From Anaerolineae bacterium (GTDB taxonomy: Bacteria; Chloroflexota; Anaerolineae; JAADDB01): a DNA stretch of 64,000 bases. Position numbers and translations under genes: made by a program. The notes under the pieces were generated by a model, which was given only the letters and a program-made list of their open reading frames with translations, did no database searches and was not told the origin of the DNA. Shown here one piece after another: positions 3,492 to 59,205 of the stretch (positions are counted from its first letter, which is position 1; each line of letters opens with the position of its first letter). The stretch spans positions 3,955 to 67,954 of the forward strand of contig WFQU01000129.1 of NCBI GenBank assembly GCA_015486845.1, given 5' to 3'.

Positions 3492-4055
3492 TCACTTTCC
3501 CACCGTCACAACCAACGTGCCCTGGCTAACCTGGACTTCTTTCACTTTGAGTTCTTCGCCGCTGCCGGAAGCCAGCGCAGAGTTTAGCGCATCGGTCAAC
3601 GCCGAGCGAATCTGTGACGGGAGAGGCAGCGAGCCCAAATACGCTTCTTCGATTCTCACTTGCAAATGACCATCCTTCACAAACGGGGACAGTTTGGTGA
3701 CGACAGTGCCGTGCAAAGCGGTATTTTCCAGTTGGATATCACCCCGCAAATAAATGGCATCTGCCTCGAACCAAACGGTCGCGTTGGCCATGGGCAGATT
3801 TTTACCCGAGAGTTTGTGATGAAAATAAGAGGTCACCTCGGACTCCGTGACGGTCAGCCGGTAACTGTTGGCGCCGACTTTGTTCCAGGACTGTAGCTTT
3901 TTCTCCATGCTGGCAGCCGCTTTCTTGCTAATGGTGACTTTGCGGGCCGGGACAGTGGCTTTCGGTTTGGAACCGATAAGGCTGCACCCGGCGAAAATGA
4001 CCAGGAGTGACGCGAGAGTGACGATGACAGGGACAAAACGTTTGTGTAATCGCAT
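3492..4055 (-). CDS. Hypothetical secreted lipoprotein
   Basis: Internal start MRLHKRFVPVIVTLASLLVIFAGC (lipobox) preceded by an AAGGAG ribosome-binding site. No recognisable family. Confidence 0.45.
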   Translation of the reverse strand: MRLHKRFVPVIVTLASLLVIFAGCSLIGSKPKATVPARKVTISKKAAASMEKKLQSWNKVGANSYRLTVTESEVTSYFHHKLSGKNLPMANATVWFEADAIYLRGDIQLENTALHGTVVTKLSPFVKDGHLQVRIEEAYLGSLPLPSQIRSALTDALNSALASGSGEELKVKEVQVSQGTLVVTVGK

Positions 4056-4084
4056 GGCATGCTCCTTTTCTCTTGCCTCAGCGG

Positions 4085-4612: not shown

Positions 4613-4739
4613 CTCTCTTCATTGCTCCTTGTCTGCTATCATTTTGCGCTTAGTAAATCATAAATCGGCATAAATGTCCAACACGGAGCATTTCCCCTTT
4701 AGCTATTCAACGCCTGCGAGGAGGTGCACTTCTAAACAG

Positions 4740-5016
4740 GGAGTTATCATGAGCCTATGGCACACCACAGCGGCTGAAAACGAAGCGGCTGGTGTCAAGC
4801 CTTTAGGTGGGTTGGTGGGTCTACCACCGGCTAAAGCCTCGATGCCGGTACGGTGGCGGGGTACGTCAAAGTTGCGTCCGCTGCCAAAAGGCTGCTCAAC
4901 ACTAGCCCCCTTTCAGGGGGCTTCTTGGCGACGTAGCACGGGGATTTGACCCCCGTGCGCTCGGGCGGAGAACGCTGTCGATTAGAAGTTCAACTTCTCG
5001 CAGAAGTTGAACTTCT
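4740..5016 (+). repeat. Composite dispersed repeat made of module S (gagttatcATGagcctRYggcRcaccacagcggMtgaaaa), the 200-bp module R2 and the terminal palindromic hairpin H
   Basis: About 85 to 90 percent identical to the copies at 22210..22400 and 50211..50471, and to the inverted copy at 16014..16200. It ends with GAAGTTCAACTTCTcgcAGAAGTTGAACTTC at 4985..5015. The track ORF 4674..4949 lies inside this repeat and is probably spurious. Confidence 0.85.
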
Positions 5017-5059
5017 TAAAGATACTCTGCGCCTTTGCGCCGCTGCGTCAACTGATTTT

Positions 5060-5150
5060 CAAGGGAGTTATCATGAGCCTACGGCGCACCACAGCGGATG
5101 AAAATTAAGATCAGCGTGCATCAGCGTTAATCTGCGTTCTATTTTCAGAG
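5060..5150 (+). repeat. Second, shorter repeat block: module S followed by leader module L' (gatcagcgtgcatcagcgttaatctgcgttctattttcagaggag)
   Basis: Same motif set as 50527..50590, 25390..25435 and 45308..45335. Confidence 0.8.
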
Positions 5151-5190
5151 GAGATAATTCTTGGATGCTTACCAAGACAGTTTTGGGCCG

Positions 5191-5490: not shown

Positions 5491-6287
5491 GCCTCATTCC
5501 CGTAGCGTTGTTCCTGAATTTCCCGGGCTAGAGCAATTTCAGGCTCACTTAATGCCTCCTGGTGCAGTTGGATATCCAGGGCTCGCTTGAAACCATCGGC
5601 CAGCGCAGCTGTGGCTTTTGTCCAACTAACAGGCCGGCCCAAAGTTTCTCGCAAAGTGGTTGCCCGGTGCAATAACCGGCGTCGCAGCATTTCCCGTTCT
5701 GCCGCGGGGAGCGCCAAATAACGAGTCAGCCGGGTGACGTCGCCACGCAGCGGCAAAGCACCGTGCTGCAATACCCAGTCCCGGCGCCTGGTCTGGGCGC
5801 TGCCGATGAGCTTGCGTCCCTGTGCGTCGATGATCTCGTAAGCAGAAGGCACCTCGAAACAGACAGCGCTCACATCGGACGGTGTGCGGCTCTCCCCCGG
5901 GGCCTCTTCCACCGACACGCCCAACTGCCGTAGCCCCAACAACAAACCCTGGCTGATCTGCAGGTAGACATCCAGCACATTGCCCTGCAGCAGAGGGTGA
6001 CCAGTCGGTCCGGCCACGCTGTAAGTCAGTTCGTCCGTGTGCAAAATGGCCCGGCCGCCAGTGGGCCGACGCACCACATCGATCCCATCGCGCCGGCAAG
6101 CCGCCCTATCGATTTCCGCCACCGGCTGGTGCCGCCCCAACGAAACGCATGCCGGCCGCCAGGCATAGAAACGAAGGGTCGGCGGCACAGCACCGGAAGC
6201 CGTCTGCTGAGCAATAGCTTCATCGACCGCCATGTTCCAACTTCCGCTCTGCGGATTAGATTGTATGATTAACCGCCATCTGTCCAT
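5472..6287 (-). CDS. Lipoate-protein ligase / octanoyltransferase family protein (BPL/LPL catalytic domain)
   Basis: LplA/LipB-like catalytic-domain pattern (RRPTGGRAILH...). It overlaps the DUF503 gene by 19 nt. The true start may be the internal Met at about 6233. Confidence 0.65.
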   Translation of the reverse strand: MDRWRLIIQSNPQSGSWNMAVDEAIAQQTASGAVPPTLRFYAWRPACVSLGRHQPVAEIDRAACRRDGIDVVRRPTGGRAILHTDELTYSVAGPTGHPLLQGNVLDVYLQISQGLLLGLRQLGVSVEEAPGESRTPSDVSAVCFEVPSAYEIIDAQGRKLIGSAQTRRRDWVLQHGALPLRGDVTRLTRYLALPAAEREMLRRRLLHRATTLRETLGRPVSWTKATAALADGFKRALDIQLHQEALSEPEIALAREIQEQRYGNEAWTAHK

Positions 6288-15725: not shown

Positions 15726-16013
15726 CCGTCTTTGAAAAAAAGACCTCTCCCCTGGCTTGCCGCCCAAAGGGGCGGCAAGCCTCCCCCTCCCCGTATCGGG
15801 GAGGGGGAAAAGCTAAGCGCAGCGCCTTCAAATTAGTCGTGTCATTGCGAGCGAAGCGACAGTGTGATCCTCTTTTTGGTCAAGCAATCTCCAATGATAG
15901 TGAGAGAGAGTGCCACGGCCCTGCCGGGCCTCGCAATGACAAACTTCTCTGAAAATAAGTTGATGCAGCAGCGCCAAGGCACAGGGCGTCTAAAAAAATC
16001 AGGCCTCCTTTTA

Positions 16014-16200
16014 GAGGTTCAACTTCTTCAAGAAGTTGAACCTCTCCGGCGTTTTCCGCCCGAGCGCACGGGGGTCAAATCCCCGTGCTACGTCGCCAAG
16101 AAGCCCCCTGAAAGGGGGCTGGCGTTGAGCAGCCCGTTTGCAGCGGATGCTGCCTTGACGTACCCCGCCGCCGCACCGGAATCGGAACCGCATATCCTCA
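16014..16200 (-). repeat. Inverted-orientation partial copy of the composite repeat (hairpin H plus module R2)
   Basis: GAGGTTCAACTTCTtcaAGAAGTTGAACCTC at 16014..16044, followed by the reverse complement of the R2 core (ccgcccgagcgcacgggggtcaaatccccgtgctacgtcgccaagaagccccctgaaagggggct...). Confidence 0.8.
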
Positions 16201-22055: not shown

Positions 22056-22400
22056 CTAGAAGTTCAACTTCTTCAAGAAGTTGAACTTCTAGAACGGCAA
22101 CATCTGCAAAATCGCCCTACGGCGATTAGCATGCAACCTGCGTAGGCAAGTTTCGCAGCTGTGGCAGCGATTTCTAATCGCAGGGCGAAGCAGCCTGTGT
22201 TGACCTACGTCCCATTCCGGTGGGCCGGCCCCTTGCCGCCGCGGCGGCGGGGTACGTCGGTCCGCTGCCAAGAGGCTGCTCAACACCAGCCCCCTTTTAG
22301 GGGGCTTCTTGGCGACGTAGTACGGGGATTTGACCCCCGTGCGCTCGGGCGGAGAACGCTGTCGATTGGAAGTTCAACTTCTCGCAGAAGTTGAACTTCT
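22056..22400. repeat. Repeat cluster made of hairpin H (22056..22093), an inverted R1-family copy (22089..22200), an R2 copy (22210..22365) and a second hairpin H (22369..22399)
   Basis: The sequence ctaGAAGTTCAACTTCTtcaAGAAGTTGAACTTCtag is followed by acatctgcaaaatcgccctacggcgatt..., then the R2 core and GAAGTTCAACTTCTcgcAGAAGTTGAACTTC. The track ORFs 22089..22286, 22161..22394 and 22280..22494 lie inside the repeats. Confidence 0.85.
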
Positions 22401-22514
22401 TTAAAAAATTGACCACGCATGTTGTTGTTGCCTGGAACGTTGTCGGCGTTGGGGATAGTTTTGCGCCAATCAGCCATGACATAACGGAGTCCATTTTTGA
22501 CTATTGTTTTTTTA

Positions 22515-22566
22515 TCTGCGTGCGCAGCCTGCGTTAATCTGCGTCCTATTTTTATTTTCAGAGGAG
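22515..22566 (+). repeat. Leader module L (ttatctgcgtgcgcagcctgcgttaatctgcgtcctatttttattttcagaggag), positioned 75 nt upstream of the fabD start
   Basis: Near-identical blocks occur at 50715..50782 (where it supplies the secG Shine-Dalgarno) and at 59135..59203. Confidence 0.8.
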
Positions 22567-25212: not shown

Positions 25213-25284
25213 CGTGTTGCCGGAGGCTACATAACGGCTCAGCCCAGGTCAAATGGAACGCTGATGGGCCCAGCGACAAAAGTC

Positions 25285-25435
25285 ACGGCAACAATCTGCA
25301 AAATCGCCCTACGGCGATTAGCTTGCAGCCTGCGCAGGCAGGTTTCGCAGCTGTGGCAGCGATTTCTAATCGCCGGACAAGGCAGACTGCGTTAATCAGC
25401 GTTCTATTTTCCAGAGCATTCTATTTTCAAAGGAG
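25285..25435. repeat. Inverted R1-family copy (caacaatctgcaaaatcgccctacggcgattagcttgcagcctgcgcaggcaggtttcgcagctgtggcagcgatttctaatcgcc...) fused to leader module L' (gcgttaatcagcgttctattttccagagcattctattttcaaaggag), which ends 10 nt before the next start codon
   Basis: Direct comparison with 2128..2503 (reverse complement) and with 22089..22200. Confidence 0.8.
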
Positions 25436-31868: not shown

Positions 31869-32190
31869 TTCTCGCCTCCTTCGAAAATAGAACCCTGATG
31901 TGCGCTGATCCTATTCATTCGCAGCGCTGTGCCGACCTACGTTGCCGTTTTAGTGACCACACAGGTAGTCGCTTGGCGGTGAGCGCAGCGAGCCGTCCTT
32001 TCGGCATGGCTTTAGCCGACATGCCCGGGGCCAAAAGCCGCCGGGCTACATCAAGTTCAAGCCCGCTCAAGCGGGCTGCTTCACCCCAGCCCCCTTCAGG
32101 AGGCACCTCATCATGTAGCACGGAGCTTTGAGCTCCGTGTGCGCCCCGAAAAACAGCTTCATAGAACTGCGTAGTTTGACGCTGACAATT

Positions 32191-44765: not shown

Positions 44766-45363
44766 CTCTATTTTATTGAGACATGGGCACAAAAGTATAG
44801 CATAGCAAAACGTTTTCTCAAAAGCGTAGTTGCTAATAACCTCGGGCTATTGGTATAGCCAGTCGTGACTCATCCGAAAACAGGCTCACCGCGGAATACG
44901 CAACGTGCGCCGCGGTCAAATTAGTGTGATTTTAGCAACTATTTGCTTCCGAAACTGTAACTGCTCGTTTCTGATAAAACAGTGGCGCCGGCACGGGCCG
45001 GCGGCCGGCCTGTGCCGGCACGCAGACAGGCGCACCATAGCGGCTGAAAACGCCCCCTATCCCCCAACCTTGGGGGGAGCAACATGCCCCAGCCCTCCGA
45101 AAAAGGGTCTTGGCTACGCCGGATCTGGTTCGTTGCGGGCAGCACTCCCTCTCGCCACGCTGCGGTCTGCCGCTATCCTGTTGGCAACGAGCGCATAGCC
45201 CGTGTTGTCGTCGTGCGTTGGTATGCGCTTAATCGTGGCTAATCGTATGAGCCGGGTCTGATAACATGAATTTTCGTGTTGCTGGCGTAATATATTTGAG
45301 ATCAGCGTTGATCAGCGTTCTATTTTCAAATGAAACAAAATTGCTGGTCGCAAGCAGCTTTGT

Positions 45364-47506: not shown

Positions 47507-48358
47507 ATGGCTGAACAAGCTAAACTAACACCTAACGATTATAAAAGTGGCGTCAAGCCGATTTGGTGCCCTGGTTGTGGCGATTATGCTGTCTTCAACG
47601 GCGTTTTGACCGCACTGTCCACATTGCAAATTCCGTTTCATCAAATTTCCATTGGCTCAGGGATCGGCTGCTCCGGGCGTTTCCCGGCTTTCGTGAAATC
47701 TTTCGGCTTCCACGGCGTACACGGCCGCGCTTTGCCGCTCTCCACCGGCATGAAAATGGCCAACCCGGACTTGACCGTTTTGACCGTCGGCGGCGATGGG
47801 GACGCATTCTCCATTGGCGGCGGTCACATTGCGCATGCCGCCCGCCGCAATGTCGATGTAACCTACATCGTCATGGATAACGAGATATATGGTTTGACCA
47901 AAGGGCAGCCTTCACCCACCAGCCCATTAGGTTTGGTGCGCAAAGCCTCGCCCTACGGCACAGTGGAACAGCCATTGAATCCGTTGCCCATGGTTTTAGC
48001 AACTAACGCTTCCTTCGTCGCCCGTGGCTTTTCTTCCCGGCCCAAGGATTTAGCTGCTTTAATTCAGAAGGGGATCGAGCACAAAGGCTTTTCTTTCATT
48101 CAGGTGATGAGCCCATGCGTTAGCTTCCACAATACCTACAAGCATTTCCGTTCCGTGACAAAGCCGCTACCGGAAGATCACGATTCATCCGATATGAATA
48201 GCGCTATGAAATACGCATTGGACCAAGAAACGGTTTGGTTGGGCATTTTCTTCGAGCGCCAGGCGCCATCTTACGACGAACTGCAGCGAGGCGTGCAGGA
48301 AAAGGTGCACAAAGAGGGCTACGACGTAGAAACACTGGTGCGAGGCTTCTTGCGCTAA
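47507..48358 (+). CDS. korB: 2-oxoacid:ferredoxin oxidoreductase, beta subunit (TPP-binding)
   Basis: GDG...N TPP motif region (TVGGDGDAFSIGGGH) and CPGCGD. Confidence 0.85.
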   Translation: MAEQAKLTPNDYKSGVKPIWCPGCGDYAVFNGVLTALSTLQIPFHQISIGSGIGCSGRFPAFVKSFGFHGVHGRALPLSTGMKMANPDLTVLTVGGDGDAFSIGGGHIAHAARRNVDVTYIVMDNEIYGLTKGQPSPTSPLGLVRKASPYGTVEQPLNPLPMVLATNASFVARGFSSRPKDLAALIQKGIEHKGFSFIQVMSPCVSFHNTYKHFRSVTKPLPEDHDSSDMNSAMKYALDQETVWLGIFFERQAPSYDELQRGVQEKVHKEGYDVETLVRGFLR

Positions 48359-48454: not shown

Positions 48455-48556
48455 GTTATCATAAGCCCGACAAGGTGGAGAAGTTCAACTTCTGTCAGAA
48501 GTTGAACTTCTCCACCGGAAAGTTTTCTTGACGCTTTGCGTCGGCTATTTTCAAGG
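48455..48556 (+). repeat. Repeat block made of a partial module S, hairpin H (48479..48510) and leader module T (ttttcttgacgctttgcgtcggctattttcaagggacagc), ending 6 nt before the birA ATG
   Basis: GAAGTTCAACTTCTgtcAGAAGTTGAACTTC. The T module also occurs at 52955..53020 upstream of the PBP gene. Confidence 0.8.
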
Positions 48557-50210: not shown

Positions 50211-50782
50211 TTGTCACAAGCCCGCCACAGCGGCTGAAAAACTGCGGCTGGTGTAAGCCTTTAGGTGGGTTGGTGAGTCTATTACCGACTAAAGCTTCGA
50301 TTCCGGTACGGCGGCGGGGTACGTCAAGGTAGCGTCTGTTGCCAAGAGGCGACTCAACACCAGCCCCCTTTCTGGTGGCTTCTTGGCGACGTAGCACGGG
50401 CCTTTGACCTCCGTGCGCTTGGGCAGGGAACGCCGTCGATTAAAGTTCAACTTTTTGAAAAAGTTGAACTTCTTAAAGGAGACCTGATTTTGAAGGGACT
50501 GTTTCCGTATTGCCTGCGTAATATATTTGAGATCAGCGTTAATCAGCGTTCTATTTTCAAGGGAGTTATCATGGGCCTGCGGCACACCACAGCGGATGAA
50601 AACCTATGGCTGGACTCGAGCCTTTAGGCGGTTTTGTAGCGTTACCCCCGGCTAAAGCCTCGAGTCCGGCGCAATGGGAGCTATTTTCAGGGGAGAATCT
50701 GTTACTAATTTCTTGACCATTGTTTTTTATCTGCGTGCGCAGCCTGCGTTGATCTGCGTCCCATTTTTATTTTCAGAGGAGG
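50211..50782 (+). repeat. Largest repeat cluster in the window. It contains module S with the R2 copy (50211..50440), hairpin H (50443..50471), a second S with leader L' block (50510..50610), and leader module L (50715..50782), whose AGGAGG is the secG Shine-Dalgarno sequence.
   Basis: Direct alignment with the copies at 4740..5150 and 22160..22566. The upstream part of track ORF 50674..51012 is repeat sequence. Confidence 0.85.
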
Positions 50783-50790
50783 TTTTGAGA

Positions 50791-51012
50791 TTGACAACAT
50801 ATCTTTATATCATTCAAATGATCTTAGCCGTTGCTTTAATCATCATCGTCATGGTAGGATCGAAAGGTTCCGGTGTAGGTAGTGTATTCGGTGGCGATTC
50901 GGCCGTTTATAACACCCGTCGCGGGGTAGACAAGCTTTTGTTTCAAATCACCATTGGTCTCTCTTTCGTTTTCTTCCTGATATCGCTGCTCTCGGTGATG
51001 ATCGGCGGCTAA
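50791..51012 (+). CDS. secG: Preprotein translocase subunit SecG (TTG start)
   Basis: TTG start 8 nt after AGGAGG. 73 aa with two transmembrane helices and a glycine-rich loop (GSKGSGVGSVFGG), typical of SecG. Confidence 0.65.
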   Translation: MTTYLYIIQMILAVALIIIVMVGSKGSGVGSVFGGDSAVYNTRRGVDKLLFQITIGLSFVFFLISLLSVMIGG

Positions 51013-52701: not shown

Positions 52702-52733
52702 GACGTTCAACTTCTCAAAGAAGTTGAACGTCT
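52702..52733. repeat. Hairpin H variant with compensatory outer-stem changes (GACGTTCAACTTCTcaaAGAAGTTGAACGTC)
   Basis: Same invariant core as the other copies. The outer base pair has switched from A:T to C:G. Confidence 0.85.
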
Positions 52734-52954
52734 TCACCGGAAAGCTCCGTGCTACGTTAATGGGAAGCCCCCTTCAGGGGGCTGAAGTCACGCAGCCCGC
52801 TTCAGCGGGCTTGGACTTGCTGTAGCCCGGCGGCTTTAGCCCCGGGCAGGTTTGCGGTGCGGCTTCAATTGCGGTTGTGATCAGCGGCAATGAATTAGGT
52901 GCCCCTGATGCGGCAGATTTAATCCTGAGACGGCAGGTCACGGACCTGCCTGGA

Positions 52955-58692: not shown

Positions 58693-58704
58693 GAAGACAT
58701 CATG

Positions 58705-59205
58705 AGACTACGGCCTGCCTTGTGCGCTGCGCGCGGACAGGCACACCATAGCGGATGAAAGTCGGCCGATAGCCGGTAGGCGTTCGCCGTTAGCAAATAT
58801 ATAAGCGGACGTTGCTGGAGCATTAATCGTGGGGAGCTGAAGCCGCACCGAAAGTGCCTGCAGCCAGGCGACCACCTACGTGGTCGCGACGACGCCAACG
58901 CACAAGAGCGAGACATTCAACTTCTGAGAGAAATTGAATGTCTGCACTGCGGTTGAAACCGCGGCACAGGAAACCGGCAAAGCAGTTCGCCCGTGCGTAG
59001 TGCAGTTTTGGCTGCTGGCAGCTGGAGCTTAGCCTTTTGGCAGCCTGGAAGCGTCGACACCGGCTAAAGCCTCGACTCCAGTGCTGGGGAAAGTGTCGCA
59101 CTTTTTTCGCGACGACATCTTCGGGATCGTTTTTTGACCGTTGTTTTTTTATCTGCGTGCGCAGCCTGCGTTTATCTGCGTCCCATTTCATTTTCAAGGG
59201 AGGGC
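58705..59205. repeat. Repeat cluster made of an S-like module (58705..58760), hairpin H variant GACATTCAACTTCTgagAGAAATTGAATGTC (58912..58942) and leader module L (59135..59203)
   Basis: Alignment with the other copies. It marks the boundary of an islet that looks lower in GC. Confidence 0.8.

Follow-up and report, generated by a model that had tools for sequence, protein, structure and literature searches.

The repeat described here, R2, has its closest described counterparts in GTAG-tagged REPs, REPIN-RAYT systems, and the TnpA transposases of IS200/IS605 elements. A survey by Di Nocera et al. (2013; PMC3733652) documented GTAG-tagged REPs along with dimers that enclose structured spacers, insertion in or next to palindromes, and presence in the Chloroflexi, for which GTAG-23 of Thermomicrobium roseum is an example. 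R2 resembles these REPs (PMC3733652; REP/BIME of enterobacteria; SMAG of Stenotrophomonas) in being present at many intergenic sites, be it as singletons, as inverted dimers, or in clusters, and in the small stem-loops of its dimer spacers, its association with a palindrome, and the association of its units with Y1 genes. It differs from them in that the unit is bipartite, with an accessory hairpin (hairpin A) ~10 nt 5' of the GTAG that covaries across distant genomes, and in that R2, at 175-255 nt, is a longer composite that also includes a decayed second unit, a conserved tail, and a palindrome (hairpin H); the unit sequences are, as far as checked, unrelated to published REP classes. With REPIN-RAYT systems (Bertels and Rainey 2011, PMC3116915; Nunvar et al. 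2010; Ton-Hoang et al. 2012) R2 shares an inverted doublet that matches the flanks of a Y1 gene, extragenic dispersal of its copies, and persistence of the family in related species, whereas its diverged copies, R2b, contain units of two sequence types that would form no single long hairpin, and the associated transposases appear IS200-like in sequence rather than group 2/3 RAYTs (groups of Bertels et al. 2017). The likeness to the TnpA of IS608 and ISDra2 would, by analogy, consist of a Y1/HUH family enzyme and a single-stranded DNA hairpin beside a short cleavage motif on one strand; in contrast to IS200/IS605 elements, the flanking units are inverted instead of being same-strand ends, vastly outnumber the genes, and occur without them.

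R2 was noticed in a 64,000-nt stretch of DNA from an Anaerolineae bacterium, hereafter the window, where the original prediction had read it as a possible paralogous structured RNA, or else as a MITE-like element. We conclude with some confidence that R2 belongs to the REP/REPIN kind of repeat, as a composite and non-autonomous member made of GTAG-tagged hairpin units and presumably served by a small IS200-like Y1 transposase; the likeliest reading is a parasitic or domesticated repeat at the DNA level, not a new small-RNA family.

Results

Copies of R2 in the window

BLAST of the region 4700-5100 against the window returned matches at 50225-50478 (87% identity, E 1e-78), 22260-22405 (96%, E 3e-64), and 16184-16008 (87%, E 4e-53), and together with multiple alignment confirmed the four predicted copies, whose pairwise identity is 84-96%. 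The predicted places were right and the predicted limits slightly too narrow: the copies extend over 4765-5021 (+), 22232-22405 (+), 50225-50478 (+), and 16184-16008 (-). The expectation of at least four copies was borne out as well, as self-comparison of the window added the two R2b copies at 32018-32145 and 52729-52852, bringing the total seen in 64 kb to six (four R2 and two R2b). A further fragment of the 5' part of R2 lies at ~59058-59075. The features are listed below in window coordinates, with bit scores from R1, a covariance model built from the bipartite unit.

4706-4735: degenerate hairpin H to the left of the module A and R2 block, 30 nt, 83% complementary to 4982-5011
4765-5021, plus strand: R2 copy 1, long form, with 5' extension, decayed left unit, intact right unit, tail, and hairpin H
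4875-4926, minus strand: decayed inverted left unit of copy 1, head GTAC, a weak R1 match (11.9 bits) at the expected inverted position
4901-4963, plus strand: intact bipartite REP unit of copy 1 (68.5 bits, E 4e-16)
4904-4922, 4923-4932, 4933-4936, and 4937-4957, plus strand: hairpin A, spacer, GTAG, and hairpin B of that unit
4985-5015: hairpin H closing copy 1, a palindrome
16008-16184, minus strand: R2 copy 2, short form, with intact unit 16061-16123 (69.1 bits) and H 16014-16044
22059-22089: hairpin H with no R2 directly attached, ~140 nt upstream of copy 3
22232-22405, plus strand: R2 copy 3, a short form carrying a 7-nt deletion, with intact unit 22285-22347 (62.8 bits) and H 22369-22399
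32018-32145: R2b-1, inverted doublet of two intact units (49.5 and 62 bits)
32018-32081, minus strand: left unit of R2b-1, GTAGCCCGG type, head GTAG, hairpin B CCCGGCGGC/GCCCCGGG, hairpin A AGCCCGC/GCGGGCT
32084-32145, plus strand: right unit of R2b-1, GTAGCACGG type, starting 3 nt after the left unit, hairpin-A sides adjoining
48480-48510: solo hairpin H in the extended form GGTGGA-H-TCCACC
50225-50478, plus strand: R2 copy 4, long form, unit 50359-50421 with hairpin B partly broken (53.5 bits), H 50442-50472
50560-50663, plus strand: module A with a variant R2 5' extension and no REP units, 83% identical to 4738-4842
52729-52852: R2b-2, inverted doublet of a plus-strand unit (52790-52852, 58 bits) and a minus-strand unit (52729-52787, 25.5 bits)

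The non-coding character proposed for R2 is consistent with the 7-nt deletion in the copy at 22210, other gaps between copies, and ORFs on different strands; a protein-coding R2 was ruled out by the indels between copies and by ORFs that lie on different strands and in different frames. Two details of the proposed conservation had to be abandoned. The stem ggtggGTCTAccacc, thought to be common to all copies, is found only in the two long ones (4790 and 50246), the copies at 22210 and 16046 lacking that part, and the change between ggggatttgacccc and ggcctttgacctcc (copy at 50246), put forward as a paired change, is not compensatory, two pairs being broken and one becoming G-T. Genuine paired changes between R2 copies occur elsewhere, for example GGTGG/CCACC to GGTGA/TTACC, and many more compensatory changes emerge once R2b and relatives from other genomes join the comparison.

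Hairpin H, GAAGTTCAACTTCT-nnn-AGAAGTTGAACTTC, is a 14-bp perfect palindrome with seven occurrences in the window versus zero expected. It closes all four R2 copies, as had been proposed, and also stands alone at 22059-22089 and 48480-48510; the former places copy 3 between two intact H, and copy 1 is bracketed by the degenerate H (4706-4735) and an intact one. H follows stop codons at distances of 19 nt (a solute-binding protein gene), 122 nt (the gene at 47507-48358), and 190 nt (the dihydrolipoamide dehydrogenase gene). With no conserved head beside it, H was ruled out as another GTAG-type REP.

The bipartite unit

The 3' half of R2, which is conserved, consists of a bipartite unit of 61 nt in which hairpin A (AGCCCCC-TTTCA-GGGGGCT), a 10-nt spacer, GTAG, hairpin B (CACGGGG-ATTTGA-CCCCGTG), and CG follow one another; generalised, the unit comprises a hairpin A whose loop is of TTCA type, ~10 nt of spacer, GTAG, a hairpin B whose loop is of TTTGA or TTCAG type, and CG. 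R1 detected eight significant units in the window, one per R2 copy and two inverted units per R2b. All eight are intergenic, lying between ORFs with Pfam support, and the unit thus has the multiple, exclusively extragenic copies of a GTAG-type REP within 64 kb. The hairpin-B pattern GTAGYACGGnnnTTTGAnnnCCGTG occurs five times in the window versus 0.05 expected. As in the short, GC-rich, imperfect palindrome of GTAG-type REPs (stem of about 5-13 bp, loop of 2-20 nt), hairpin B has a stem of 7-9 bp and a loop of 5-7 nt in all units, with 93.5% of stem cells paired, and as in their head, GTAG stands directly 5' of hairpin B in the right unit of 4/4 R2 copies and in each unit of R2b; in the decayed left unit of R2, GTAC takes its place.

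For the assessment of covariation, 39 distinct units were taken from the window and 16 loci. Paired stem cells amounted to 93.1% versus 81.0% in shuffles, in a structural alignment that was fitted to the model and so favours pairing, although the same compensations can be seen by eye in the raw unit list. Changes on both sides were present in 11/16 pairs, the observed values were reached by 0/500 shuffles, and sliding the 3' partners by 1-3 columns lowered pairing to 37-51%. On the GTAG strand, non-Watson-Crick stem cells comprised 45 G-T and 7 A-C, and this excess of G-T points to a fold that matters on one strand. Folding z-scores of R2 were -4.5 on the plus strand and -5.1 on the minus strand. 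The conserved folding that had been anticipated was upheld across the 39 units, and its covariation is explained equally well by single-stranded DNA hairpins recognised by a transposase; a one-strand fold is expected for RNA and just as much for the single-stranded DNA substrates of Y1 transposases.

R2 aligns with R2b end to end, with the inverted left unit of R2b matched by the left half of R2, and weak R1 matches occupy the inverted left-unit position in three R2 copies. R2 is an R2b-like doublet whose left unit has decayed (GTAC head, weakened hairpins), and R2b itself has the geometry of the sequences on either side of a Y1 transposase gene, minus the gene. Beyond the doublet, R2 carries the conserved tail GCGCTCGGGCGGAGAACGCYGTCGATTA and palindrome H, and two copies also contain a 5' module that lies 3' of module A. 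The inverted REPs with a short spacer that characterise a REPIN are present in R2b-1 and R2b-2, and in R2 in decayed form only. Near-identical REPIN arms are absent from R2b, where the arms are of GTAGCCCGG versus GTAGCACGG type with different hairpin A sequences; the doublet would therefore not form one long hairpin, each unit folding alone. In R2b-2, hairpin B of the minus-strand unit is shortened by hairpin H (52702-52732). Two other metagenome contigs also carry the bipartite unit as an inverted doublet, though with stems of entirely different sequence, one with GTAG inside (L009, 29-88 on the minus and 104-163 on the plus strand) and one with GTAG outside (L020, 1671-1730 on the plus and 1758-1817 on the minus strand), and both dimer geometries thus occur in the unit family.

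Y1 transposase genes beside the unit in other genomes

Public genome and metagenome collections were searched with the hairpin-B pattern, which leaves the upper stem free. Among genome-collection matches, true R2 was confined to a single Anaerolineae MAG (L003, L005); three other matches were rejected as chance occurrences inside genes. In matching contigs of unrelated samples, the free positions were again complementary and CGG again stood directly 3' of the hairpin. One of these, the 3.4-kb contig L013, contained five copies of the motif on both strands around a 168-aa ORF encoding a Y1_Tnp/IS200-like HUH transposase (Pfam PF01797, E 3.5e-21), and a truncated homolog of such a transposase with the motif adjoining was found at the end of L015.

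A protein search with the Y1 transposase yielded 127 homologs; those with organism names were from Chloroflexi, Anaerolineae, or Promineofilum, and several were labelled 'REP element-mobilizing transposase RayT' by JGI. We examined the contigs of seven homologs (L024, L025, L027, L028/L029, L030/L031, L032, and L033, the last being 568 nt long and too short to show any unit). In other genomes and metagenomes, the unit or a variant of it adjoins Y1_Tnp genes in eight loci, seven of them independent. Inverted units stand on both sides of the gene, as for a GTAG-type REP beside a Y1 gene and in the geometry by which REP-associated tyrosine transposases (RAYTs) are defined, in six (L013, L024, L027, L028/L029, L030/L031, L032), and in these the hairpin-A side of each unit faces the gene; in L020 both units are upstream, and in L025 a single unit lies just downstream. 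The units beside Y1 genes have the hairpin A AGYCCCC-TTCA-GGGGGCT or a covarying equivalent, and hairpin A of R2 is almost identical to this consensus.

The associated Y1 proteins matched only 'IS200/IS605 family transposase' in NCBIfam (60-82 bits against a cut-off of 55), and their best PDB matches were the TnpA of IS608 and ISDra2 (E about 5e-7), with no TnpA-REP among them; they therefore seem RAYT-like by gene context rather than by sequence class, and may correspond to the 'RAYT-like IS200 group' of PMC5581495. No Y1 transposase gene was present in the 64-kb window by tblastn or on the MAG contigs L003, L005, L022, L023, and L039, and the contigs of the closest Y1 homologs came from other organisms, none from the species of the window. 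BLAST of R2 against a plasmid collection gave no match.

In one unrelated genome (GCA_963851995.1; L024, 5001-5909), the Y1 gene flanked by GTAGCCCGG-type units directly adjoins DUF503, as does R2 copy 1 in the window. This common neighbour is probably a coincidence, because the corresponding spacer of a sister species (L037) is a plain 89 nt. To regard R2 copy 1 as the trace of a transposase gene lost from beside DUF503 would be speculation, and we set the idea aside in view of that short sister spacer.

Gene context and orthologous spacers

The genes neighbouring R2 and R2b are functionally unrelated, encoding DUF402, DUF503, a PA14/NHL glycosyltransferase-like protein, PDH E1, dihydrolipoamide dehydrogenase (E3), a FabD-like acyltransferase, EF-P, SecG, a solute-binding protein (SBP), a class A PBP, ornithine cyclodeaminase, and DnaJ. 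Orientation relative to the flanking genes is mixed: in 3/6 loci both genes run opposite to R2 or to its GTAGCACGG unit, and copy 2 lies in a divergent promoter region.

EF-P homologs assign the organism to Anaerolineae, and gene order is preserved in two sister lineages. Three orthologous spacers were compared with those of sister Anaerolineae (L034, L036, and L037). The EF-P-SecG spacer, 763 nt long here and containing R2, is 447 nt in L034, where it holds an R2b-type doublet in the opposite orientation between flanking genes of ~84% DNA identity, and 314 nt with no unit in L036. Between SBP and PBP, 351 nt with R2b-2 here correspond to 64 nt in L034 and 278 nt in L036, both without a unit. 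In L037 the DUF503-DUF402 spacer, 578 nt long with R2 here, measures 89 nt and is free of units; the ~505-nt block that includes R2 corresponds to ~19 nt there, with no evident duplication, and no unit was found anywhere in L037. Both ends of a same-species scaffold (99.9% identical) fall inside R2-bearing spacers. This context and turnover fit a mobile, or at least rapidly turning-over, repeat and not a conserved regulatory RNA tied to particular genes.

The MITE-like alternative in the original prediction is accordingly retained in altered form. As a non-autonomous REP/REPIN repeat R2 agrees with it, the units flanking Y1 genes elsewhere and the element being absent or different at the three orthologous spacers; as a classical MITE R2 probably does not, since it is without terminal inverted repeats of its own and no target duplication was seen. 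The only long inverted pair at copy 1 is the degenerate H (4706-4735) with the intact H.

The listed SecG ORF (window 50674-51012, 112 aa) is too long: the SecG domain begins at residue 44, relatives encode 73 aa, and the true start is probably a TTG at ~50791. With that start, the EF-P to SecG spacer consists of ~760 nt of repeats.

Searches for RNA families and signals

No Rfam match was obtained for the whole window at gathering score. In E-value mode, the R2 region gave only chance-level matches to hairpin H (E >= 0.04) and two neighbouring repeat regions gave nothing meaningful. A tRNA/tmRNA scan returned none, and consensus scans for promoters and terminators around two R2 copies revealed no shared sites.

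Other repeat modules

Several further modules share the intergenic DNA of the window. Module A, GGAG-n-ATCATG-nGCCTAYRG-[optional GC hairpin]-GCRCACCAYAGCGGMTGAAAAC, occurs at 4738-4781, 5062-5104, and 50560-50603, with variants at 45008-45084 and 58700-58762, and in L036 at 5656-5697 and 4007-4083. It is 93-95% identical to the copy in the sister species, whose coding DNA is only 71-76% identical, and immediately precedes the long form of R2. The ATG of module A varies (ATA in L036), and Rfam gave no match for it; the module may represent either a conserved leader RNA or a further mobile element. Module P (TTGACCATTGTTTTTTATCTGCGTGCGCAGCCTGCGTTGATCTGCGTCCCATTTT...TTTTCAGAGGAGG; 22493-22566, 50708-50782, and 59130-59203) has copies that are 89-93% identical, two of them directly 5' of gene starts (acyltransferase and SecG), and contains reiterated ATCTGCGT words, with a ribosome-binding-like GGAGG at the end. 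Akin to it in design, module Q (GATCAGCGTTAATCAGCGTTCTATTTTCAAGGGAG; 45271-45329, 50502-50560, and 5108-5160) has reiterated ATCAGCGT words followed by TATTTTCA-GGAG; downstream of its copy at 5108-5160 there is only a 43-codon ORF antisense to DUF503. A tandem array at 2125-2493 comprises ~2.7 copies, 96-97% identical, of a 135-bp unit, which also has dispersed copies of 79-90% identity at 22094-22201 and 25280-25407; one of the dispersed copies separates hairpin H from R2 copy 3. A further short module with a hairpin, GGCAGGTCACGGACCTGCC, is found at ~52903-52953 of the window and in different spacers of both sister species (L034 ~1171-1201 and L036 5718-5769).

Discussion

The REP/REPIN reading of R2 draws on features observed directly, namely the repeat family, the structure of its unit, covariation, strand bias, the association with Y1 genes elsewhere, and absence from orthologous sites. 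Its mechanism is modelled on known systems: a Y1 transposase encoded elsewhere in the genome would bind the folded GTAG-strand unit in single-stranded DNA and cut at or near GTAG, and cutting would lead to the copying or relocation of doublets into intergenic DNA, possibly beside palindrome H. That the genome of R2 itself holds such a cognate enzyme, acting on R2, we infer by analogy with RAYT/TnpA-REP and IS200/IS605 TnpA (PMC3116915, PMC5581495, PMC3733652). With GTAC in its left unit, R2 may be a derivative in decay, and with no GTAG in that unit it may even be an immobile fossil that was spread by other means.

The main competitor of this reading is the one from which the study began, in which the hairpins of R2 work as RNA, the copies being either structured small RNAs with transcription of their own or cis-acting UTR modules. 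Stable folds (z = -4.5), compensatory changes with a one-strand G-T (G-U) bias, and the intergenic position of every copy are all what such RNAs would display, but the compensatory changes and the bias would be shown by single-stranded DNA too. There is no match to an Rfam family, the two R2 spacers scanned share no promoter-like or terminator-like site, the copies are of mixed orientation beside unrelated genes, both flanking genes being reversed at 3/6 loci, and each R2b has one unit per strand; in sister species, three orthologous spacers hold either no such element or a different one, and the identical type of unit flanks transposase genes elsewhere. We therefore regard a paralogous RNA or sRNA family as highly improbable. 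A function at the RNA level may nevertheless have been acquired later. Whatever their origin, R2 and H could now serve the host mainly as 3'-end mRNA stabilisers, terminators, or barriers between genes, a secondary function that is compatible with a REP/REPIN repeat and that has precedents among the REPs of other bacteria summarised in PMC3733652. Several copies and H do lie just 3' of stop codons, and the hairpins are very stable; however, no T-run follows them 3' and no terminator-like site appeared in the scan, copy 2 occupies a divergent promoter region, and close relatives lack the element at orthologous sites and therefore do not require it there. We consider it unlikely that this is now the main role of R2 and H, while RNA-level side effects of R2, stabilising or terminating neighbouring transcripts, are possible on the analogy of REPs elsewhere.

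The transposase-related evidence also admits the reading that R2 derives from a true IS200/IS605 insertion sequence, as a remnant or a miniature (PATE), in which case the hairpins of R2 would be the left and right ends and possibly overlap a TnpB/IscB guide-RNA scaffold. The associated proteins do score as members of the IS200/IS605 family, with the TnpA of IS608 and ISDra2 as nearest structures, and the fold is strand-specific. The ends of IS200/IS605 elements have the same orientation on one strand, whereas the flanking units are mutually inverted in the six Y1 loci with units on both sides and within R2b. Moreover, the Y1 genes stand alone in the loci listed, no TnpB or IscB gene adjoining, the units are far more numerous than the genes, and there is no Rfam match of any kind, a result that extends to guide RNAs (omega RNAs) provided that the library includes such a family. 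Such an origin seems to us very unlikely. Compared with the REP/REPIN repeat that we favour, a broader proposal goes further: the bipartite unit may define an undescribed REP class served by an IS200-like, independently domesticated Y1 clade that is widespread in Chloroflexota and in soil and marine bacteria, with hairpin A as a second recognition or guide element and the R2 composites, made up of doublet, palindrome H, and leader-like modules, co-opted as structured RNA modules that influence how neighbouring genes are expressed. We put this forward as a long shot, and regard the bipartite unit with its covarying accessory hairpin, together with the IS200-like transposase clade, as mildly novel.

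Conclusions

The identification of R2 as a REP/REPIN-type repeat, probable on the evidence above, explains the mosaic of hairpin repeats in the intergenic DNA of this Anaerolineae genome and the breaks that metagenome assemblies of the species show there, and removes a false lead for a new small-RNA family. It extends to a Chloroflexota lineage a type of element known mostly from Proteobacteria, and provides a candidate two-hairpin recognition unit, supported by covariance, that can be assayed with the associated IS200-like transposases.
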